In this document: positions 28,000 to 39,455 of the stretch, in pieces
Layout: each line of letters begins with the position of its first letter
How positions within the stretch are numbered: position 1 is the first letter of the stretch
Virus record (IMG/VR): IMGVR_UViG_3300032030_002802
Location: 1 to 64,000 of that record
Strand: one strand, 5' to 3'
Source of the DNA: a virus
Taxonomy: Duplodnaviria; Caudoviricetes
DNA: 64,000 bases
Position numbers and translations under genes: made by a program
Notes under the pieces: generated by a model
What the model was told of the DNA's origin: nothing
The model's input: only the letters and a program-made list of their open reading frames with translations
Database searches by the model: none

Positions 28000-28009
28000 C
28001 GTTCCTCCT

Positions 28010-28270
28010 TCATATCCGCATCACCTTCACGTCGTCCGCGTCTATCGGCATCCAGCGTCTCCCGCACGCGTCCATTATCGCGTTCACGGCCTTAGCGTAA
28101 GGGGTGTCGTCGCCCGGGCGGAACTCCGCCTCCATGTACGAGGCCACGGAGTCCTCGAGCTCGGCGCAGAACTTCTCGAAGTCGCAGTCCGGCGCGTCCA
28201 CCAGCACGAACCGGTCGACTATGGCGGCCCCGCCGCTGTCGTTCACGAACCTGAGGTCTATCAGCTTCAT
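28010..28270 (-). CDS. Hypothetical protein
   Basis: MKLIDLRF..., GGAG RBS. Confidence 0.6.
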   Translation of the reverse strand: MKLIDLRFVNDSGGAAIVDRFVLVDAPDCDFEKFCAELEDSVASYMEAEFRPGDDTPYAKAVNAIMDACGRRWMPIDADDVKVMRI

Positions 28271-28356
28271 GTCGTATTCTCCGGTGGCAGACAGGCAACG
28301 GGGCAGCGCCGTGAAGCGCCGCCCCGTTGCCGTGTTGCCTTTGTCCTGCCGTTGCG

Positions 28357-28914
28357 TTACTTGGCCGGAAGCGCGAACGCCTTCGCCGTCGCGTCGTACT
28401 TCATGCCGATCGCCTCGTGCGCCTTCTTCAGCGCCTTGGCGGCCGCCGCGTCCTCGCTGCGGGCTATCGCCGTGCGGCATCCGCTGCAGAACGCAGCCAC
28501 GACCTTGGACACCTTCTCAGCGTTGTCCTGGATGTCCTTGTGGGACGCCATGAACGTGTCGAGGGCCCCGAGCGCGACGAGCGAACCCACGTTTATCAGG
28601 TTCTTCTGCGCTGCCGTGAGCCCCTCGCGCCTGGCGACGAACTCCTGGATCGCGGGCGTGAGCGCGTCGACGTACGACGCGCCAGCGCCTACCGTCGACG
28701 CGCTGTCGCCGATCATCGTGACCACGTCCTTCAGCGTGGCCTTGACCTTCGGGTCGGGGTCGTCGATGGCGAACCAGGCGCTGAGGCCCAGGTTGCCCGC
28801 GGTGCTGGCCGCGGCGATTAGCGCGTCGTCGTCGGGCGTGCAGCCCGCGACGAACGCGACGGCGGACGCCACGGCTGTGGCCGCGGCGATGAGCGTGCAT
28901 TTGATCTTGTGCAT
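28357..28914 (-). CDS. Putative lipoprotein
   Basis: Signal peptide with lipobox FVAGC. Confidence 0.7.
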   Translation of the reverse strand: MHKIKCTLIAAATAVASAVAFVAGCTPDDDALIAAASTAGNLGLSAWFAIDDPDPKVKATLKDVVTMIGDSASTVGAGASYVDALTPAIQEFVARREGLTAAQKNLINVGSLVALGALDTFMASHKDIQDNAEKVSKVVAAFCSGCRTAIARSEDAAAAKALKKAHEAIGMKYDATAKAFALPAK

Positions 28915-29026
28915 TGTCTTTCCTTCTTTGGTTAACCATGTGCCGGGTGGCCGGTCACCTTTCCGGCCTCCCGCGGCGCTGGCGTATAGTATAGCACATG
29001 TCGCGCTACGCCGCCATCCCGCAGTT

Positions 29027-29149
29027 TCACTTCGCCGGCTGCGCGTTCACCTTGGCCAGTCCGAGCTTTTTGGCCTCGTCGGGGCTGTTGGCGTGGACTA
29101 CGACCTCGCGTGTCTGCTTCTTCGTGACCTTGACTATGTATTTCTGCAT
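29027..29149 (-). CDS. Small protein (40 aa)
   Basis: MQKYIVKV..VHANSPDEAKKL; resembles 36654-36848. Confidence 0.55.
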   Translation of the reverse strand: MQKYIVKVTKKQTREVVVHANSPDEAKKLGLAKVNAQPAK

Positions 29150-29320
29150 CGTCTGTACTCTTTTGGTTTCTGTTCCGGCGGCGCGGCTCGTTCCCGGGCT
29201 GGTTGCTTGGCCGTCGCTTAGATCGCGTGCGGGCACGTGAGTCCGAAGGGGGCGTTCGCCGCCTTCACGACTCTGGCTGCCCGCGCAGAGTGCTTCGCCC
29301 GGTCATCGGCCCGCCGGCCG
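29150..29320 (-). ncRNA. RT-associated hairpin array 1 (1 unit)
   Basis: TAGAT at 29219, hairpin to 29286, GTG-N10-TCAT (+ strand reading). Confidence 0.7.
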
Positions 29321-29839
29321 CTACTGGTCCCCGTCGTACGTGGAGCGGACGTAGTAGCGCCTCACGTCCGGCAGGTCCTCGTCCTGTATGTTGCGCAGCC
29401 AGTTGGATATCGGCGTGCATTCGCCGGACGCCTCCAGGATGTAGATCCCGTCGAACTCGTATGCCTGCCTTATGCGGTATATCGCGTCCGACATCTTCGG
29501 GTTCCTGGAGGAGAAGTTCGCCAGGGTCATGTCGGCGGCCAGCTTCGCCGCCACTTCCCGCATCTCGTTGAAGTACGGCCTGAACAGCGGCTCGAGCCGG
29601 TGCGTGTCGATCTCGAGCCACTCCATGTTTCTGCCATCCTCCGCCGCAGTGCCGTGCCGGACCACCGCCGGCCCGAGCCAGTCCACCAGGGTCCTGATGT
29701 CGTCTTGCCTGTCGTAGCCGAAGTGCTCTGTCACCCCGTCCGGGAACTTGTCCTCGTTCTGCGCGAAGACCTCGTCCTCCGTGTGGGTGCAGTACGACGG
29801 CCTTCCGTCCAGCGACAGCTCCAGTATCGTTACGTGCAT
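29321..29839 (-). CDS. Hypothetical protein between arrays
   Basis: 172 aa, strong RBS. Confidence 0.75.
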   Translation of the reverse strand: MHVTILELSLDGRPSYCTHTEDEVFAQNEDKFPDGVTEHFGYDRQDDIRTLVDWLGPAVVRHGTAAEDGRNMEWLEIDTHRLEPLFRPYFNEMREVAAKLAADMTLANFSSRNPKMSDAIYRIRQAYEFDGIYILEASGECTPISNWLRNIQDEDLPDVRRYYVRSTYDGDQ

Positions 29840-29869
29840 TTCTCCTTAGCCTCCTTGTCTGTTGTTGGT

Positions 29870-30333
29870 TGTCGGTTGTCCGCCGTTCCCGGGGTGTTGC
29901 CCTGGAATCCGTCAGATTGTGCCCAGTGGGGGCACATACCGCGGCTGGTCGGTAGGGAGCAGCCGCGGTAGGCGACCACTGGGCAATGCCCTGCCCGGTC
30001 ATCGGCGGACGCCGTTGCCGTTGTCGTTGCTCGGATTGCGCGCCGGCTCGTTTACCGTCTTGCAGATGGCCGACCGGAGCGGCACAGGGTCATGTACCCT
30101 GTTGGGGACATGCCCCACCCGGTACCGCGCCGGTCGGGCTGGTGCGCGCGCCCTTCCGCGTCCTCCCGTGCCCGCCGCGTTCCGCGCCTGTGTTGCGTGG
30201 ACTGTGCAGATCGCCATTCGAGCGGCAGACAAGAGCCGAGTCCGCCGGGCGAGCGCGGCTACGCCGGACTCGGTCCTGTGCTGCTCGAATTGCGTGCATT
30301 GCCGCGTCATCGCGGCGGGCGCCGGGTCCGCCG
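29870..30333 (-). ncRNA. RT-associated hairpin array 2 (3 units)
   Basis: CAGAT at 29913, 30063, 30207, each followed by a long hairpin. Confidence 0.8.
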
Positions 30334-31641
30334 TCAGCGGCGGCGGAGCGACCTGAGGAACTTGGCGATGTCGAAGCGGGACGCCTCGATCGACTTCTTC
30401 AGGATCGCGTGGATGACGTACGCCGGCGTGTCGGTGTCGAGCAGCGCGCGGAGCTTGTTGAGCCCCTCGCGCGCGCCTCCGGCCATCTCCTGCGTGCGGT
30501 TGCGCCAGTTGCCGCCCTCGGTGGTGTAGCGCACGTGGCAGTTGACCACGAGGCTCTTGAGGGTGTAGTAGGCGCCCTGGCGCTTGAACGCCTCCTTCCA
30601 GGCCTTCGGGAGCCAGAAGCGGGTGCAGCCGTCCTGGTCGCGGAAGGTGCCCATGCTCACGCTGGGCAGGGAGTTGCGCAGGATGTCGAGCGCGTCGGCG
30701 TAGGTCTTGCAGCGGCGGACGCGCTTCTCGGCCTCGGCGATGGTGCGGTTGAGGCTGACGAGCCAGTTGGTGGGGCTGATCTCCGTGCGCTCGAACTCGG
30801 CGCCGTCGTCGCCGGAGCCGGAGGTGTGCTTCTGCTTCCAGAGCTCGACGCGGCCCTCGCCCTGGATCTTGCGCCAGTAGACCCCGGTGCGGGAGTTGAA
30901 GGTGCACTTAGCGCGGTCGTTGACGTTGTTCCTGAGCCCCTCGAGGTACTGCGTGAAGATCTCGCAGATCTTGGGGACGGTGAGGAACTTGCTGCGTTCG
31001 AGGAACGCGGTGTGCCAGTGCGTCCGCATGAACTCGAGCTTCTCGATCTCGGTGTCGAGGAGGCGGAAGCAGTCGCGGAGGCTGTAGCGGCGGGCGATGG
31101 CGGCGTCGACGTTGCCGTCGTGCGCGAGCATGAGCCCGAGGTACTGCGCCGGCAGGAAGCGGCGGCTGGTGTAGGGCGTCCACACCTCGCCGTTCTGCAG
31201 TACCGCGTTGTACCACTTGGACGTGACGGCGATCTTGGGGTCGCCGCCGTCGCGCACGCCGGCGCACGTGCGGCGGCTGATGCGGTCCTCGTCGGTGGCC
31301 ATGCGGCCGGTGATCTCGATTCCGGCGTCGGCGTCGCCATAGTCGGGCGAAAGTCCGTCGCACCCGCCGTTGACGCGGCGTCCGTTGCGGAAGCGCTTGG
31401 TGTTCCCGTCGCCTGCCACGCTCCCGTCGTCCGCGGCGTGGCCGGCCATCACGGTCGGGACGTCGCCGATGGCGCACGGGCGCACGACGGACTTCACGAC
31501 CTTCGCGATGCTCTTCTCGGCCTCGCCGGTGTCGAGGTTGGCCGCCACCGCGTCGATGATGTCTCCGATGGTGAAGTCGGAGGTGCTCGTGATCTTCGTT
31601 CCGGGGTTGATCTTTGGTTTTGCCATATCAGTGTCTCTCAT
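30334..31641 (-). CDS. Hypothetical protein (~435 aa), candidate RT-system partner A
   Basis: ATGA-coupled to the upstream gene (alternative start 31626); RRFLPAQY, WKEAFKRQGAYYTLKSLV. Confidence 0.8.
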   Translation of the reverse strand: MRDTDMAKPKINPGTKITSTSDFTIGDIIDAVAANLDTGEAEKSIAKVVKSVVRPCAIGDVPTVMAGHAADDGSVAGDGNTKRFRNGRRVNGGCDGLSPDYGDADAGIEITGRMATDEDRISRRTCAGVRDGGDPKIAVTSKWYNAVLQNGEVWTPYTSRRFLPAQYLGLMLAHDGNVDAAIARRYSLRDCFRLLDTEIEKLEFMRTHWHTAFLERSKFLTVPKICEIFTQYLEGLRNNVNDRAKCTFNSRTGVYWRKIQGEGRVELWKQKHTSGSGDDGAEFERTEISPTNWLVSLNRTIAEAEKRVRRCKTYADALDILRNSLPSVSMGTFRDQDGCTRFWLPKAWKEAFKRQGAYYTLKSLVVNCHVRYTTEGGNWRNRTQEMAGGAREGLNKLRALLDTDTPAYVIHAILKKSIEASRFDIAKFLRSLRRR

Positions 31642-32585
31642 TTGTTGGTTTGACTCTTCTTGCTGTTGCCTGTGTCCGGCTGCGCATTGCGCACGCGCCC
31701 GGTGTCGATGTACTCCACCAGCCTGTTTATCTCGCATATGGTCGGGTCGAGGTCGTAGCACTTCGCCCTCATCTGGAGTTTGAACGCCTCCTGCGCCAGG
31801 GACTTCGCGAGCCTGGCGAGGTTGGGCGCGACCTGCATCGCGCGTGCGTCGGAAGCGCACACGCCGGACGGAATCCGGGCCCGCACGCCGCCGTCTGCCG
31901 CGACCACCACCTGCTCGGGCCCGATCGTCTTCAGCCCGGGCAGGGGCAGCACGGCGCGGCGCCACCAGTCTGTCTTGATCACCAGCTGCCTGTCCGCGTC
32001 GGCGTTGGTTGCGGCCGCCGGCGCCCACCACCAGCTGTCCGGGATCCAGTTTGCCTGCGACGTCACGTACTTCTCCAGCGTTCCGTCCAGCGCGGCGCAG
32101 AGTATCCACGCCTCGAGGCGCACGCGTGCCTCGCCCCGGGGCATCCCCTGCGCTATCTCGTCGTCCGTCATCTCGTCCACGTCCTTGGCCGGGAAGTTGC
32201 TGGCCATGTACCTCTCGGCCCCGTTCGGGCGGGACAGGTAGTGCTCGCGGAACAGGTCGACCGGGTCCAGCCCCTGCTCGTACTCGGTGAGCCACGGCAG
32301 TCCCGCGATGTCCACCTTCACGGTGGCCGTCTCCAGCGTCGGCACCTTGACCTCGCCGTTGCCTATTATGAACACATGCCCGACGAACGCGGAGTGCGCG
32401 GTGAGGTCGAACTTCACCATGTCGGCGTGGCGGCCGTTCGTCCTGTACAGCTTCCCGTGGGTCTTGGCGACCTCCACGAGCCCGGAGTACACCGAGTCCA
32501 CGTGGATTTTCCTCTGTTCCGGCTTCGGCTCGGCCATCTCGTCGGACAGCACGGCCGTGTCTTGCGGGTCTTGCTCTTCTTCCAT
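31638..32585 (-). CDS. Hypothetical protein (315 aa), candidate RT-system partner B
   Basis: AGGAG RBS; HYLSRP..RGEARVRLE..WWW..QLVIKTDWW. Confidence 0.8.
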   Translation of the reverse strand: MEEEQDPQDTAVLSDEMAEPKPEQRKIHVDSVYSGLVEVAKTHGKLYRTNGRHADMVKFDLTAHSAFVGHVFIIGNGEVKVPTLETATVKVDIAGLPWLTEYEQGLDPVDLFREHYLSRPNGAERYMASNFPAKDVDEMTDDEIAQGMPRGEARVRLEAWILCAALDGTLEKYVTSQANWIPDSWWWAPAAATNADADRQLVIKTDWWRRAVLPLPGLKTIGPEQVVVAADGGVRARIPSGVCASDARAMQVAPNLARLAKSLAQEAFKLQMRAKCYDLDPTICEINRLVEYIDTGRVRNAQPDTGNSKKSQTNK

Positions 32586-32609
32586 TTCGGTTCTCCTTTG
32601 GTTTGTCCC

Positions 32610-33318
32610 ATTAGGTAGGCGGCCTGTTGGTTTGGCATTGGTCAGATTGAGACCTGGTAGAGGCCTCGGGCTGTGGGTAGACAGCTGGGCCGAAACCAGG
32701 TCGAATGTCAGAGTCCGCCCTTCCTGGGTGTATGTCCGGCGTCCGGGTGTGTCCGGCGGGGTCTCCCGCGGAATGTGCGTCGTGTCGCAGATTGACAGCT
32801 GAGAATGAGGCGACCGAGAGGATGGAGACCTCGACGGACGAGCGGTCGCCTTATTCCAGCTGAATGCAGTACGGGGTCCTCCCGCCGGCCTGTCTCGTCC
32901 CGCACCGGTTTCCGGCCCTGTTTACGCAGCAGTGCGCAGATGCGCAGCGTGCTTGCCAGATCGGCGATCCTTCACGTGTCGGATCACCGATCTGGTGTGC
33001 ACGCCACGGTGGTCAGGCCGTCATGCCGGGAAGTCGTGCGCTTCCGCCGTTGTGGCTTCAGGAGCCCATAGATTGTGCGAGCCCCGTCCAGGGACATCGG
33101 ATGTGGATTGGCCCGGGCCATCCGATGTCACGGACAGTGCTCGTACGATGTACCTGGGCGTCATGCGCGTGTAGGCCGGGCTGCGCTTCGCCGCCTGTGT
33201 ACGGTCTATTGGTCAGATCCGGCTGGCCGAACCACGTGGTGTACCCGGCATGGGTAGACCGGGTGTACCACGTGGGGAGGCGCAGCCGTGTTCCAGCGGC
33301 ATCATGGCACAGTCTCGC
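32610..33318 (-). ncRNA. RT-associated hairpin array 3 (5 units)
   Basis: YAGAT at 32643, 32788, 32937, 33069, 33214, each followed by a hairpin. Confidence 0.85.
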
Positions 33319-33603
33319 CTATTTCTTCCTGCCGGCCAGCGTCTTCCGCAGCAGCCGTTCGGCCCGCTGCATCGCGTATCTCCTCGCCCCTGGGCAGTTG
33401 CAGCCGCCGCTGAACCAGTGGCACTCGTACGGCGACACGAGCCCGGCCGAGTTCAGCGGCCTGTACCACTTGCACGCCTGGACGGTGAACCCGTCCTTCA
33501 CGCAGCCGTACGTCAGCCGCACGTCGTCCTCGCCGAACGCCTCGGGCGACACCTCAAGCGTCACCGTGCATAAGTTCATCCTGTTGTCGGTCGCCATCTC
33601 CAT
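33319..33603 (-). CDS. Small hypothetical protein
   Basis: MEMATDN..., coupled downstream of the RT. Confidence 0.6.
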   Translation of the reverse strand: MEMATDNRMNLCTVTLEVSPEAFGEDDVRLTYGCVKDGFTVQACKWYRPLNSAGLVSPYECHWFSGGCNCPGARRYAMQRAERLLRKTLAGRKK

Positions 33604-33791
33604 CAGTCCTTTCTCATGAGGTAGCAGCTGTGTATCGCGTCCTGCACCTTGGATATCGCCTGGTTCACGTACATGAATGCGGTAGCGGACCCCTCCACGC
33701 CGCATATGGACCGGCCTATCTCCTCCAGCCCGCGCTCTGCGCCGCGTAGGGACTCCTCGGCCCGCGCGACCGTGTCGCCGGTCTCGCTCAT
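33603..33791 (-). CDS. Small helical protein
   Basis: MSETGD..., ATGA overlap with the RT stop, GGAGG RBS. Confidence 0.6.
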   Translation of the reverse strand: MSETGDTVARAEESLRGAERGLEEIGRSICGVEGSATAFMYVNQAISKVQDAIHSCYLMRKD

Positions 33792-35077
33792 GCGGTCACC
33801 TCCATCATCTCCGCCGTGTACACGCTCGGGCCGCACCGTGAGGCGCGGTACATCCGCATCAGGCTCTTGTAGCCCATCGTCCTGAGCATGTCGTCCGACG
33901 TCAGCGCCTTTGCCTTGCGGTGCTGGGTCTGCCGTCCGACGTACACGCCCTTGATGTGCTCCCTGATGTACTGGTCCAGCCTGCGCACCCGCGTCGGGTT
34001 GTCGATCACGCTGAAGAAGTAGCGCTCCCAGCCGAAGTTGCGCTGGTCGGCGTAGTGGCCGTCGCGCAGCAGCCAGTTGATCTTCCTGATGGCCTTGACC
34101 TGCTCCTCCCGGCTCTCCTTCGGGATGTACTTGTGCGGCCGGCAGATGCGCCGTATCTTGAGCTTGATGCGGTGGTAGCTCTCCTCGCTCATGTCGACCG
34201 TGCCGTTAGAGATCTCGCAGCCGAGGAACGTGAACGGGTGCGAGCTGTCGACCCGGGTGGTCTTCTTCTCGTTCAGCTTCAGGCCCTTCGCCGCCAGCAT
34301 CTCGCGCAGCGTGTCCAGCGCCTTGTCCGCGTCCGTCCCCAGCACCAGGATGTCGTCCGCGTACCGCAGGTACAGGACGTCCATGGCCGACAGCCGCTCG
34401 TCCACGTCCCTGAGGGCGAGGTTGGCGAGCAGGGTGCCGAGGGCGTTGCCCTGCCTGATCGCCATGTACCGCGGCTCCAGCTCGCCGTTGACGTACACGC
34501 GGTCGTCGTGGAAGTGCTTCCAGACGAGCGCGTCCACGGGGCTGCCGGTGTCCATGCTCTTCAGCGTGGCGTCCAGCGTCTCGCGGTTCACGCTGTCGAA
34601 GTACTTGCTGAGGTCGACCTTCCACCCACGGTCTCCGCGCCTCAGCCTTGGTATGAGGTCGCCGTGCAGGATCCGCTTCACGCCGATCCCGCGTTGGTAC
34701 GACCTGCACGACGGGTGTATCATCCCGCCGTACAGCCTGTTGTAGATCGCGCTCACGACACCGAGCACCAGGCCGTCCAGCGGCTGGCTCGGCGCGTACA
34801 GGGTGCGCACCTCCTTGAACTCCCTGTGCACCGCCTCCTTGTACGAGAGGTAGATGCCGGTAATCTTGTCGAGGTACAGGGTCTTCGGCGGCGACAGCGT
34901 GAAGCGCCCGTCGGCGATGGCCTGAACCAGCGCGGCGCGGCCGACCGTGTCGGCCACCGCCCCGAACGACTCCATGTCGATCCTGCGGCCCTTCTTCCTG
35001 CGGACGCGGTTCATCACGTCCTGCCAGATGGCCGGGTCGCACAGCATCTCCATTTTCTCGTCTTCGTCACTCATCAT
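33788..35077 (-). CDS. Reverse transcriptase (stand-alone, group-II-like), 429 aa
   Basis: RTLYAP..D, SCRSYQRG, KVDLSKYFDSV, IRQGNALG, YLRYADD, GLKLNEKKT, FTFLG, GWERYF; AGGAG RBS. Confidence 0.95.
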   Translation of the reverse strand: MMSDEDEKMEMLCDPAIWQDVMNRVRRKKGRRIDMESFGAVADTVGRAALVQAIADGRFTLSPPKTLYLDKITGIYLSYKEAVHREFKEVRTLYAPSQPLDGLVLGVVSAIYNRLYGGMIHPSCRSYQRGIGVKRILHGDLIPRLRRGDRGWKVDLSKYFDSVNRETLDATLKSMDTGSPVDALVWKHFHDDRVYVNGELEPRYMAIRQGNALGTLLANLALRDVDERLSAMDVLYLRYADDILVLGTDADKALDTLREMLAAKGLKLNEKKTTRVDSSHPFTFLGCEISNGTVDMSEESYHRIKLKIRRICRPHKYIPKESREEQVKAIRKINWLLRDGHYADQRNFGWERYFFSVIDNPTRVRRLDQYIREHIKGVYVGRQTQHRKAKALTSDDMLRTMGYKSLMRMYRASRCGPSVYTAEMMEVTA

Positions 35078-35099
35078 TGTCTGTTCTCCTTTTGTTGTT

Positions 35100-35995
35100 G
35101 TCCCGCCCTTCCGCGCCTGTGTGTGCGTTGTCGTGCAGATCGCCGTCGAGGCAGGATACCGTCGGGATCGGCATGGCCGATGCGACGGTATCTCGGGGGT
35201 CGACGGAGTGTCTCGGCGCGTCATGGGCGTACCCGCGTGCGCGCCTTCGGCATCGGCTATTCCGCCATGTGGCAGATCGGCCGCGGGCGAATCGGAGTCG
35301 CAGCGCCGGCGCGTGCTAGCGCGTGGGCGCAGCCATCCCCGTTTCGCCGCGGCTGTGCGTTGAATGCCTCCTGGCCCGCGTCCTGCATGTCCTGCGTGTC
35401 CGGCCGTGCGGCAGTGCGGCCTTCGGCACCCGTCCGTCAGGTGGCGGGTCAGATCCGTGTCGCATTAGGAGATGATGCGCATTCGTGCAGTCAGAGAATG
35501 CGCGTCATCTCCGTAACGACACAAAGGTGTCATGGTGTGCCTCGTGGCCTGCCCGGTCCTTCGGCGCGCGTCCCTTCGTCATAATGCAGATCGGAGGCAG
35601 CATTAAGCAGGTGATCACAGGGCGGTCGCAGTGTGATCACCTGCGTATGCTGCCGCGCGTGCAGGTGCGCCTCGTGGACTGGGTTCGGGGAATGGCCGGC
35701 GTCGGGGACGGTTCGTGCCATGTGGCTCAGATCGAACCCGGTGAAGGCGATCTTCGGCCAGGATGCTAGTCCTGGGCTAAGATCGCGTGAACCGGGTGAG
35801 TGGGCGGCCCCTCCTGCCGGCCTGGTCGGGCTGGGTTGGACGGCGCTTCCGCCGCCGTCTGCTGCTGGTCCCTTAGATTTGGCCGGATCCTTGGGCTCTG
35901 TCGGAGACGAACGGTCAGGTCGTATCCGTCGAGCTCCAAGGATCCGGGCGTGGATCGCGGCGTCGTGCGTCCGTGCGTCCGTGCATACGCCCGCG
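35100..35995 (-). ncRNA. RT-associated hairpin array 4 (6 units), directly upstream of the RT
   Basis: YAGAT at 35136, 35273, 35450, 35587, 35728, 35874, each followed by a hairpin. Confidence 0.88.
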
Positions 35996-36652
35996 TCAGG
36001 TGTGCGTGGACCAGCTCCCGTACGGTGCGCGTTCGCCGCTTGGCAGGTAGTCGGCGTGGTAGATTATGCCGCCACACAGGCCGGGCCGGCGCGACATCGC
36101 CTCGCGCACGGCCGTGTCTGGCTGCGTTGCGGCCTTCATGGCCGTGTCGGCCTGGAACGTCCGCGAGACCCCCTCCTGTCCGAGCATGTCCGGGAGTTCG
36201 CTCTCGTCGAAGCCGTCCACCACCTCCTGCGTACGGCCGTCCCTGAAGATGTACCAGCACCGGTCGTAGATGTCCACGCGCTCGCGGGTGTACGGGTCGA
36301 TCCACTCCTCCCTGAAGAAGAACGAGTGCTGCGCCATGTCGGCGAACACGAACGTCTCGCGCACCGGCAGCCGGTCCTTCCAGTCGTGCGCCGTGTGGGT
36401 CTGCCCGTCCTGGAGGCGTATCTCCGACCCTTCCGGGAAGAACGGGCTCCTGTTGTCGATGGCGTCGGCGTTGGCCCTGTACCCGAAGCACGCGAGCAGC
36501 GTCCTCGCGGCCTGTCCGCGCTTTTCCTCCAGCTTTCTCAGCTCGGGGGCTTCGGTCAGTTTTGCGTTCCGGATGGCCGCGTCGAGCATCAGGTCCGCGT
36601 TTATCGCGAACTGCACGGCGGCGTGGAACTGCTCTGGGCATGTTATCGTCAT
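35996..36652 (-). CDS. Hypothetical protein between arrays
   Basis: 218 aa; DMAQHSFFF..CGGIIYH..WSTHT (recalled resemblance to DUF4120-like proteins, unverified). Confidence 0.75.
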   Translation of the reverse strand: MTITCPEQFHAAVQFAINADLMLDAAIRNAKLTEAPELRKLEEKRGQAARTLLACFGYRANADAIDNRSPFFPEGSEIRLQDGQTHTAHDWKDRLPVRETFVFADMAQHSFFFREEWIDPYTRERVDIYDRCWYIFRDGRTQEVVDGFDESELPDMLGQEGVSRTFQADTAMKAATQPDTAVREAMSRRPGLCGGIIYHADYLPSGERAPYGSWSTHT

Positions 36653-36653
36653 G

Positions 36654-36848
36654 TCAGTAGTCCGTTAGGGTTTGCGTCTCGTCGTCCGTCGCGTTCACCG
36701 GCTTCACGCCGATCAGCTCCAGCTTTGACAGGTCGGCGTTCTTGAACGCCTCCTCCGCCTGCTTGAACGCCTCCTGGGGCGTCTCGGCCAGGACGGCCAC
36801 GTCTATCCGCCCGTCAACGGCCAGGCTCACCGTGAATGTCTTGTTCAT
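36654..36848 (-). CDS. Small hypothetical protein
   Basis: MNKTFTV..VLAETPQEA; GAGGAG RBS. Confidence 0.7.
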   Translation of the reverse strand: MNKTFTVSLAVDGRIDVAVLAETPQEAFKQAEEAFKNADLSKLELIGVKPVNATDDETQTLTDY

Positions 36849-36869
36849 GTCTCTCCTCGGTTTTGTTGT

Positions 36870-37646
36870 TGTCGTGGGTTCCCGGTCCTGTTCATTCCGC
36901 CGTTCGTCAGATTCTGACGGCAGGTCGCCGCTTTGGTGGGCGCGGCCCTGGGGGAGCTCCGCAGCGCAGGTCACGGAGCGGAGGTGCTCCTCCTCGGGCC
37001 GCGCAGGGCGGCTGCCTGCCGGCTGATGGAATGCCGGTCATCCCTTTTGTTGTAGTTGTCTGGCTTCCGCGCTGTTGTTCTGTCTGTGTCGCAGATGGAG
37101 GATCAGCGAAGCGATGCCACGCCTCCTGAAGTCCCACGGAGGTGAGGCATCGCTGCCTGATCCGAATGCGGCGTGCGCGTACTGCCTTTTCCTGGTCGTG
37201 TTCGGCAGGCTCGGGCGGCTGTCTTTTCGCGGTTGGTCAGATCGCAAGGCAGGCTGAGGCTGAGCGGCGGTCGTAGCTAAACGATTTCGCGGCTCGCCGA
37301 GGCCTGCCTGGGGTGCATTCTCCGCCGCACGCCCGCCTCGGCTTTGTGCGCTTCTTTCGGGTTCCGCACCAGTGTCCTCTCGGTTAGGCAGATCGCGTCG
37401 TCGGCAGATCCAGAAGCCTCCGAGGTCGTCGGATGGCCTCTGGATCGCAGGGCGACGCACTGGATGGGTGCGTCTTCCCGGCGGCTTGGGCGCCTGTGTG
37501 TCGTTGATCCGCTAGATCGTCTGTCTTCTGAGTCGGTTCTCGAGACCTGCGGTCGCAGGTCGTGCGCGCGAATCGAGGAAGAAATACGGACGTGGAGCCA
37601 GCGCCTCATGCCGCGTCGCGCGCCGTCACGTCGTCACGCCGCCGCG
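36870..37646 (-). ncRNA. RT-associated hairpin array 5 (5 units)
   Basis: YAGAT at 36908, 37092, 37238, 37389, 37513, each followed by a hairpin. Confidence 0.85.
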
Positions 37647-38306
37647 TCACCTGTGCAGGTCCATCACCACGTCGCCGGTCCCGAAGGCGCACTTGAACCC
37701 GCATCTCGGGCAGTCGCCGATGCACTTCGTCGCGTCCTTGGGCACGCGCCTGTCGGACCCGTCCTGCACCCAGCAGTTCCGCTTCACGTTCCTCTGGCGG
37801 GGCGGTGGCATGCGCGGCCACTGCGAGCGGAGCACGCGCAGGTTGTCCGGCAGCGAGGCGTGGTCGAGCCCGTCCATCTTCGAGTAGCCGTAGAACACGG
37901 TGCCGGGGTGGTCGCCGGCTATCCGCCTCCACATGTCCAGGTACTCCCGCGAGTAGAAGTCCCCAGCGACGTGGAGCCGCATCACCCGCGGCAGCGCCAT
38001 GTACAGGAACTTCCGGATGAGCAGCTCGGCGAGCGTCGGGTAGTTCTCCAGCATCCACAGGTTGTGGGTCCACATGTCCCACACGTTCGGGAACATGTCG
38101 CGTATCCGGTTGTTGTAGCAGCTCTTCGCGCAGTACCCGCGCAGCCTGGGGTTGCACGTCTTGACGTGGGGGATGCTCCACGACGGTATGTAGCCGATCT
38201 TGCGGTTGCCGGTGCCGATAGAGACGTACAGCTCGGGGCTGGCCGTGCCGACGATCTCTACGCCTTCCGCCCCGTCCACGTCCTCCGGGTCGATCCCCAC
38301 CTTCAT
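37647..38306 (-). CDS. GP88-like (radical-SAM-like) phage protein
   Basis: GNRKIG..KTC..CAKSCY..RLHVAGDFY..FYGYSK..CIGDCPRC. Confidence 0.75.
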   Translation of the reverse strand: MKVGIDPEDVDGAEGVEIVGTASPELYVSIGTGNRKIGYIPSWSIPHVKTCNPRLRGYCAKSCYNNRIRDMFPNVWDMWTHNLWMLENYPTLAELLIRKFLYMALPRVMRLHVAGDFYSREYLDMWRRIAGDHPGTVFYGYSKMDGLDHASLPDNLRVLRSQWPRMPPPRQRNVKRNCWVQDGSDRRVPKDATKCIGDCPRCGFKCAFGTGDVVMDLHR

Positions 38307-38605
38307 GCCAGCACCTCCTTCCAGGTGTCCGTCACGTCGATGGTCCGCACGGTCTTGTACCGCTTCTCGTTCTCCCTGCGCGCCTTCAGCGTCTCCTGCC
38401 ACTCGTCGTCGCCGATCCCGTAGTATTCCTGCTCCTCGCCGAGGACGTCGAGCGCCGCGTCGAACAGGACGCAGTCCATGTAGGAGATCGCCTCCCCCCG
38501 CGCGCTCATGTCGACGAACCTCTTCTTGACCTGCCCGGCGGCCTCCCTGGACATCGTGTACTTGACCAGCGTGTCCATGGTCTCGATGTTCGACCCCGCG
38601 GTCAT
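38303..38605 (-). CDS. Hypothetical protein
   Basis: Coupled ORF. Confidence 0.65.
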   Translation of the reverse strand: MTAGSNIETMDTLVKYTMSREAAGQVKKRFVDMSARGEAISYMDCVLFDAALDVLGEEQEYYGIGDDEWQETLKARRENEKRYKTVRTIDVTDTWKEVLA

Positions 38606-38808
38606 CCGAACAGCTCCATCTGCACCAGCTTTGGGCGTTTCGCCGCTTCTTTGGCCAGCGTGGCCAGCGACTTGCCCGTCAGGGCCTTCAGCTGGGTGTC
38701 TATGGCCGCTCGGACGAAGTCGTCGATGGTCGAGCTGAACTGCACCCTGGCCGCGTGCTTGATGACCGTGTGCTCGACCATGGTGACCGCCGCACGCACG
38801 GTCGTCAT
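38602..38808 (-). CDS. Small ribbon-helix-helix-like protein
   Basis: IKHAAR..TIDDFVRAAI. Confidence 0.45.
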   Translation of the reverse strand: MTTVRAAVTMVEHTVIKHAARVQFSSTIDDFVRAAIDTQLKALTGKSLATLAKEAAKRPKLVQMELFG

Positions 38809-38831
38809 GGGTTCTTTGCCTTCGGGTTCGC

Positions 38832-39455
38832 TCACAGCCTGTCCTCCAGCTCGATTACCTCGTACACGGTCCTGCCGCGCTTGTTCCTCTCGGCGGCGAT
38901 CTTGCACGCCTCGTCCTTGCGCTCCAGCAGCATGGCCTCGAACGGCGGCGAGTCCGTCACCGGCTTGCCTCCCACCAGCTTCAGGCCGACCTTGGGATAG
39001 GTCCTGCCGCAGAGGCCCGCGGGGCCGAGCCAGCCGACGGCGCGTCCGGACGGCGCTACGACGCGTATCGCGTAGCGCGTGACGTCCTTGGCCGTCACCG
39101 GGACCCGCTTGCCGTACACGACCTCGCCGGTCCGCACGTACACCCTGCCGTTCACGACCTCGATCTTCTCGAAGTCGTCGTCGTCCTCGCCGGACCGGTA
39201 TATCTCGCCGCTGAGCTTGATCCCCCGGGTCGACAGCAGCCGCTGGACGCGGAATGTGTCCTTGACGATGTCGTACCCGTGCATGTTGTAGCTGTCCGGC
39301 ACCACGTCGCCAACCTCGCCGCCGCAGTCCGCCGCATCGTCGCTGAGCGACGCGAGGACCCGCAGGTCGCACATGCCGTTTATGCGGTCGACGAGCTCCT
39401 GGGGTATCGGCTTGCTCGGGCTGAGCGAGCCCGAGAACGTTGAATTGTATCCCAT
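38832..39455 (-). CDS. Hypothetical phage protein
   Basis: MGYNSTFSG..., AGGAG RBS. Confidence 0.7.
   Translation of the reverse strand: MGYNSTFSGSLSPSKPIPQELVDRINGMCDLRVLASLSDDAADCGGEVGDVVPDSYNMHGYDIVKDTFRVQRLLSTRGIKLSGEIYRSGEDDDDFEKIEVVNGRVYVRTGEVVYGKRVPVTAKDVTRYAIRVVAPSGRAVGWLGPAGLCGRTYPKVGLKLVGGKPVTDSPPFEAMLLERKDEACKIAAERNKRGRTVYEVIELEDRL

Follow-up and report, generated by a model that had tools for sequence, protein, structure and literature searches.

Base composition of unpaired positions and the wobble asymmetry of template hairpins in a divergent UG27 reverse-transcriptase system from a phage of high GC content

Genes and hairpin arrays of the locus

The stretch of DNA analysed here, referred to as the window throughout, makes up the first 64 kb of a virus record of IMG/VR (IMGVR_UViG_3300032030_002802; 199,078 bp, 65% GC), and almost all of its genes lie on the minus strand. 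Judging from its gene content, the region between positions 29219 and 37600 is a reverse-transcriptase system of the UG27 group, a divergent high-GC phage member of the kind already published. Its hairpins contain more G-T than A-C mismatches on the plus strand, and an earlier note on this DNA had taken this bias as a sign that selection acts on the fold of that strand. We found that the raw G-T excess is fully explained by base composition and is not evidence that selection sees the fold of the complementary DNA (cDNA) copy.

The UG27 group was defined previously (Mestre 2022, PMC9226505), and the locus was assigned to it because the reverse transcriptase (RT) and both UG27-defining accessory clusters (337 and 346) match. 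The RT gene (33788-35077, minus strand) encodes a protein of 429 amino acids, whose residues 5-383 are covered by the PADLOC model RT_UG27 (E = 3.4e-66, 222 bits), the runner-up among the PADLOC models being RT_UG26 with 159 bits. The protein also matches the Pfam domain RVT_1 (E = 2.6e-19), and the NCBIfam models for retron, group II intron and Drt enzymes all scored far under their cut-offs. It has 96 homologues, 26 of which are 63-100% identical. The large accessory protein (bORF, Mestre cluster 337; 430 amino acids, 30334-31626, minus strand) is recognized by the PADLOC model RTas337 (E = 9.2e-14), with no match in scans of Pfam, PHROG and NCBIfam, and the small accessory protein (sORF, Mestre cluster 346; 315 amino acids, 31638-32585, minus strand) by RTas346 (E = 1.5e-7).

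Comparisons were made with a close clade of ten JGI metagenome contigs (RTs 83-91% identical) and with a distant family set of 80 UG27 loci, which are IMG/VR gut-phage members with RTs just 27-36% identical to that of the window. Neither a single-protein scan of viral contigs nor a genome-contig scan found close relatives. By tblastn, the large accessory protein was detected on the RT strand at 6 of the 10 close and 5 of the 80 distant loci, and the small one at 7 and 6 loci, respectively. Six further metagenome contigs of ENA type encode an RT that is only 23% identical to the window RT.

Twenty units of a common type, each about 140 nucleotides (nt) long and spaced 124-184 nt apart, lie in five intergenic arrays and are confined within the window to positions 29219-37600. 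On the plus strand a unit reads CTTCCGC-N3-CTGT-N12-YAGAT, followed by an imperfect hairpin of 45-100 nt and then often by GARTG-N10-GTCATSG. No sequence is common to the hairpins of different units, and they form no sequence family. All five arrays are annotated on the minus strand. Array 1 (29219-29300) consists of unit U1, with YAGAT at 29219, a hairpin at 29229-29284 and a predicted plus-strand cDNA beginning with GAT at 29221. Array 2 (U2-U4, 29913-30310) has YAGAT at 29913, 30063 and 30207 and hairpins at 29913-29993, 30072-30135 and 30209-30297, and array 3 (U5-U9, 32643-33300) has YAGAT at 32643, 32788, 32937, 33069 and 33214 and hairpins at 32651-32702, 32796-32862, 32947-33004, 33075-33146 and 33232-33275. 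In the RNA sense, the RT gene is immediately preceded by array 4 (U10-U15, 35136-35960; YAGAT at 35136, 35273, 35450, 35587, 35728 and 35874; hairpins at 35137-35213, 35286-35348, 35457-35522, 35596-35654, 35736-35797 and 35881-35949). Array 5 (U16-U20, 36908-37600) comprises YAGAT at 36908, 37092, 37238, 37389 and 37513 and hairpins at 36919-37020, 37100-37163, 37247-37309, 37404-37448 and 37544-37561.

Folding was far beyond chance on both strands for 19 of the 20 hairpins (z <= -2.67 as plus-strand DNA and z <= -3.67 as minus-strand RNA), including that of U1 (-2.67 and -3.70, respectively). The last unit of array 5, U20 (37513-37600), is weak (-0.93 as DNA, -1.79 as RNA); it barely beats shuffled sequences and may be decaying. 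Other identities had been considered for the repeats: integron attC sites, repetitive extragenic palindromic elements and miniature inverted-repeat transposable elements were dropped after the RT and both accessory proteins had matched UG27, and a reading of the units as small open reading frames was rejected, start and stop codons being inconsistent from unit to unit. An Rfam scan of the region returned only sub-threshold chance matches to microRNA models, and ARAGORN found no tRNA genes.

UG27 loci have been described as carrying arrays of ~150-nt units, conserved in structure and diverse in sequence, which are co-transcribed with the RT gene and reverse-transcribed into short single-stranded DNA (ssDNA) hairpins (bioRxiv 10.64898/2026.09.22.753630, September 2026). 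According to the same study each of the three UG27 proteins is needed, the cDNAs are 50-100 nt long, and copying starts at the AUC of AUCNNNNNNNUANAG, proceeds across the hairpin and stops after UUYA; RT-dependent ssDNA hairpin copies were shown for five gut-phage systems. Neither an asymmetry of wobbles or mismatches nor a tip motif is mentioned in its text.

All 20 window units carry AUC at the 3' foot of the minus-strand hairpin. Because AUCUR, the complement of YAGAT, stands at the 3' foot of every minus-strand hairpin, we infer by homology to the characterised UG27 systems that the template RNA is the minus strand and the cDNA the plus strand, starting with 5'-GAT. At the 5' foot, ahead of the hairpin, CAYUC is present in 10 of the 20 units of the window and in 25 of 94 units of the clade and is degenerate in the others. 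Orientation is consistent among the relatives: at the 80 distant loci the published motif was counted 428 times in the RT sense versus 115 times in the opposite one, with a periodicity of ~170 nt adjoining the RT, and at the ten close loci AUCUR preceded by a strong hairpin was found 112 times in the RT sense and 4 times in reverse. The UANAG half of the published motif is not conserved in the window at the published spacing, the clade consensus being AUCUG..ACAGgcgcgGAAG. On the minus strand, the clade-specific consensus of the 3' flank reads cgAUCUGc-N14-aCaGgcgcgGAAgcc.

The locus shares with the published systems a phage-borne UG27-group RT with cluster-337 and cluster-346 proteins, arrays in the RT sense built of 135-170-nt units whose central hairpins are long and diverse in sequence, AUC as a constant element of the 3' foot, and additional units in nearby intergenic gaps; a UUC-type motif at the 5' foot resembles the published one but is degenerate in half of the window units. 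It differs in the low identity of its RT to those of the gut-phage members given above, in the GC content and size of the phage (65%, 199 kb), in the distribution of its 20 units over five arrays, between which four more conserved small genes are placed, in its short spacers, which resemble the ~135-nt class that has no pseudoknot, and in its 3' flank, which reads AUCUG-N14-ACAG-N3-CGGAAG rather than AUC-N7-UANAG.

Retrons are similar in that a short hairpin ssDNA is made by an RT from a structured non-coding RNA encoded next to it. However, the window RT lies outside the retron clade (53 bits with NCBIfam retron_St85, whose cut-off is 235), and solved retron RTs match only its core (residues 150-287, E ~1e-10). 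There are twenty tandem templates rather than one, three proteins are needed in the relatives of the window system, and there is no sign of a 2'-5' branch, which sequence would not reveal. The analogy to multicopy single-stranded DNA drawn in the earlier note therefore holds for the function and fails for the enzyme, which is not a retron RT, and, going by homology to the characterised UG27 systems, the first of its two alternatives, a plus strand that is reverse-transcribed ssDNA, appears to name the correct molecule. DRT2 and DRT9 likewise combine a class 2 UG/Abi RT with a neighbouring non-coding RNA as template, but their products are long or concatemeric, in contrast to the 50-100-nt hairpins of UG27 (bioRxiv 10.64898/2026.09.22.753630), and the Drt2 and Drt9 models score far under UG27 on the window RT.

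Four more small minus-strand genes without a family match lie between the arrays (29321-29839, 33319-33606, 33603-33836 and 35996-36652). They are kept at three to eight of the ten close loci and are absent from the 80 distant UG27 loci, and could be components of the system that are peculiar to this clade. A blastn comparison of window positions 28000-39000 with the ten close relatives showed that gene order is kept and that genes are 67-86% identical at the DNA level; only a few array segments align. The hairpin units thus appear to turn over much faster than the genes among close relatives, and since so few segments align, a comparison of orthologous units is largely impossible for the window.

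Wobble-type mismatches and the composition of unpaired bases

The earlier note had reported, from a hand count, about 12 mismatches that are G-T on the plus strand and about 2 of the opposite kind. The four stems it quoted exist and contain the G-T mismatches claimed for the plus strand (33241/33266 together with 33242/33265, 32807/32852, 30224/30282 in array 2, and 37121/37143). It had overlooked A-C sites at 30083/30124 (a C-A in array 2), 32965/32986, 33085/33136, 35153/35194, 35296/35338 and 37415/37438. Two strand-neutral ways of counting were applied: one accepts only pairs common to the folds of both strands, and the other forbids G-U pairs altogether; bases standing opposite one another in symmetric gaps were then classified. 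On the plus strand, G-T and A-C mismatches numbered 15:6 for pairs common to both folds and 11:5 within the 20 central hairpins, so that the direction of the excess is borne out while its size had been overstated. Taking all wobble pairs in the best fold of each strand, we obtained 23:15 for the hairpins only and 58:29 with the flanks included. Wobble type showed no pattern with stem depth (outer versus inner half). For the clade, which is of high GC content, mismatch statistics are based on 74 non-redundant units, which gave 36:15 (p = 0.005 against 1:1).

The excess is, however, what composition alone predicts. Permuting partners among the mismatch positions of the window yields an expectation of 11.4 G-T to 3.7 A-C against the 11:5 observed, and the same permutation in the 74 clade units predicts a G-T fraction of 0.70, compared to an observed fraction of 0.71. 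Since G facing T is no commoner than the base frequencies predict, the wobble asymmetry does not argue for selection on the cDNA fold.

Folding energies, computed for both strands against skew-preserving shuffles as the earlier note had proposed, lead to the same result. The plus strand is the more stable one in 17 of the 20 units, on average by -3.9 kcal/mol with RNA parameters and by -2.2 kcal/mol with DNA parameters, but dinucleotide shuffles yield strand differences of -4.4 and -1.35, respectively. Relative to these shuffles the two strands are similarly remarkable, with z scores of -5.1 (plus) and -5.5 (minus) under RNA parameters and of -5.2 (plus) and -4.9 (minus) under DNA parameters. 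Moreover, shuffling the unpaired bases alone on an unchanged Watson-Crick skeleton gave the asymmetry of the window again (z = +0.4 with RNA and -1.1 with DNA parameters). No bias of wobbles or energies is thus left in the window after correction for skew, which is the outcome that the earlier note had itself named as speaking against its claim of selection on the plus-strand fold.

Isolated 1x1 sites, where a single base faces a single base, tilt if anything towards G-U on the RNA strand. Their ratio of G-T to A-C on the plus strand is 4:5 for the window, 15:12 for the clade and 22:39 for the distant family, which is represented by 146 hairpin units. The 39 G-U against 22 A-C that the distant sites have on the RNA strand differ from the composition of all unpaired bases (p = 6e-7) and are not significant against the sites' own margins (P ~0.16); clade and window lean the same way. 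Clusters of related units contain 80 compensatory pair columns; RNA-strand G-U appears in 43 pair columns and A-C in 51 (p = 0.47). Maintenance of the helices is therefore clear and strand-neutral, at most leaning to the RNA.

The source of the excess lies in the unpaired bases of the hairpins. In the RNA sense, their frequencies in the window are G.157, C.388, A.24 and U.215, which corresponds to a GC skew of -0.42. As A and U are about equally frequent, G-T and A-C should stand on the cDNA strand in the same proportion as G and C, ~2.4, as observed. The same unpaired-base skew accounts for the excess that purine-purine mismatches have over pyrimidine-pyrimidine ones on that strand (window 24:9, clade 73:25, family 159:62). 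Values of G/(G+C) on the RNA strand are 0.26-0.30 in apical loops as well as in internal loops and bulges, and this applies to the window, the clade and the 146 distant units; since apical loops have no partner and share the skew, it is not an effect of pairing.

We consider it probable that the locus is a UG27 system in which wobble and energy asymmetry both follow from the scarcity of G among the unpaired bases of the RNA strand. A minus-strand operon transcript would carry the 20 units of ~140 nt, and the RT with its two accessory proteins would start at AUC, which is invariant at the 3' foot of each long, sequence-diverse hairpin, and copy this hairpin into a short ssDNA, which is the plus strand in window coordinates and begins with 5'-GAT. 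The unpaired bases, G-poor and C-rich on the RNA strand (~1:2.5) with A and U in balance, by themselves predict the observed 2.4:1 ratio. The template RNA might be kept as a clean hairpin with nearly all of its G paired to C or U, and the G-rich, purine-purine mismatches of the cDNA would be an inherited by-product.

Hairpin tips and alternative explanations

Several observations weigh against this explanation, among them some on the tips of the hairpins. Tips of the form GNNA occur in 10 of the 20 window units on the cDNA strand and in 1 on the RNA strand, where shuffles within the loops of the cDNA strand, which served as the null model for the GNNA and G.TA tips, give 4.7 (standard deviation 1.6); for the narrower form G.TA the counts are 6 and 0 (shuffles 1.4). 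Among the 146 family units, 73 GNNA tips on the cDNA strand stand against 4 on the RNA strand (shuffles 32.9), and 49 G.TA tips against 2 (shuffles 12.4). Exact cGNNAg tips number 16 on the cDNA strand and none on the RNA strand in the family. In addition, the real arrangement of unpaired bases in the distant family favours the cDNA strand past shuffles of these bases when RNA parameters are used (z = -4.0), which is not the case with DNA parameters (z = -1.2). The 3' flank motif departs from the published one though AUC is invariant, the plus strand is presumed to be the cDNA at 29219-37600 from homology, and an RNA-level cause for the G-poor loops is simply the most economical reading.

The window tips of GNTA type lie at 29950-29957, 32674-32681, 33249-33257, 35313-35320, 35763-35770 and 37274-37281; on the plus strand GGTA is found in U5 and U9 and GCTA in U11 and U14. 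Tips of distant UG27 phages read GTTA or GATA on the cDNA strand, often in the form cGNNAg. As cited in PMC10085684, d(cGNNAg) is one of four unusually stable classes of DNA tetraloops (Nakano et al. 2002). A pseudoknot between tip loop and flank does not account for the motif, as the RNA tips pair with the 5' or 3' flank no better than swapped or shuffled loops do. The GNTA tip of the cDNA strand is the best evidence, and the only sign, of tuning at the level of the cDNA, and composition leaves it unexplained. A UANC recognition element on the RNA would be an equally good reading of it.

These tips belong to the strongest of the competing explanations, namely that the cDNA hairpin itself is under structural selection, with G-T, G-A and G-G oppositions as stabilising elements and a stable DNA tetraloop as a cap; the counterparts on the RNA would be C-A, C-U and C-C, which are weaker and could also make unwinding easier for the RT. 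The greater stability of the plus strand in most units, the purine-purine excess and the absence of a comparable G:C skew from fourfold degenerate sites agree with such selection, as do tip motifs that exceed within-loop shuffles on the cDNA strand only. Nevertheless, G-T is not enriched over expectation in any data set, the partnerless apical loops carry the same skew of G over C, the energy asymmetry of the window is reproduced by composition-preserving shuffles, and the 1x1 sites lean to G-U on the RNA strand. The strict tip motif is also weak in the window (cGNNAg once on each strand), and a protein may recognize it as UANC on the RNA. Family-wide, composition explains the stems and the tips side with selection on the cDNA. 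Taken together, we regard selection on the cDNA fold as an unlikely source of the asymmetry, although it is the alternative to be taken most seriously.

A neutral mutational skew caused by replication or transcription would agree with the excess of T over A on the plus strand across the window, and the earlier note had flagged a G/T skew of the intergenic plus strand as a confounder. The skew does explain the bias, but it is not a background mutational one and is local to the unpaired bases of the hairpins. At fourfold degenerate sites of nine flanking genes, G and C are nearly balanced in the RNA sense (.45 and.425; GC skew +0.03, against -0.42 at the unpaired hairpin bases), and G/(G+C) at such sites is 0.49-0.51, which differs from the loops with p values from 4e-4 to 2e-35. 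The same contrast is seen for 58 distinct distant RT genes, whose fourfold degenerate sites have G.30 and C.31 compared to G.10-.11 and C.28 in the loops. The T excess of the plus strand is located in the spacers between the hairpins, which are A-rich and U-poor in the RNA sense (A.26, U.09), whereas A and U are about equal inside the hairpins. A mutational origin is therefore highly improbable.

Hairpin RNAs transcribed antisense from the plus strand, each from a promoter of its own (CTTCCGC-N3-CTGT-N12-YAGAT), the other possibility raised in the earlier note, are just as improbable despite the conserved two-part motif upstream of every plus-strand hairpin: its 21-nt spacing is unfit for sigma-70, a promoter scan found 2 sites against 1.0 expected, both within genes, stems start 6-10 nt past YAGAT so that a transcript from there would lose the outer stem, the flank motifs are conserved in the RT sense in every relative, and in the experimentally studied relatives the equivalent motif flanks an RT-sense RNA on its 3' side.

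Meaning for UG27 systems

The locus extends the known UG27 arrays to a divergent clade of high-GC phages, with 20 units and extra conserved genes. Wobble counts at a single locus cannot settle which strand is selected, because the strong, hairpin-specific G:C skew of unpaired bases gives the same picture. The argument from wobbles is replaced by two regularities that hold across the family, the G-poor unpaired bases of the templates and the GNTA tip of the cDNA strand. Which of the two molecules does the work of UG27 could be told if it were known whether selection acts on the RNA hairpin or on its DNA copy. It is conceivable, and we propose it only tentatively, that throughout UG27 the template hairpins are shaped to suit their DNA copy, as the G-rich unpaired bases of the cDNA and the tips of GNTA or d(cGNNAg) type might suggest. 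If so, the folded ssDNA hairpin would be the system's functional product, which the published description does not discuss.

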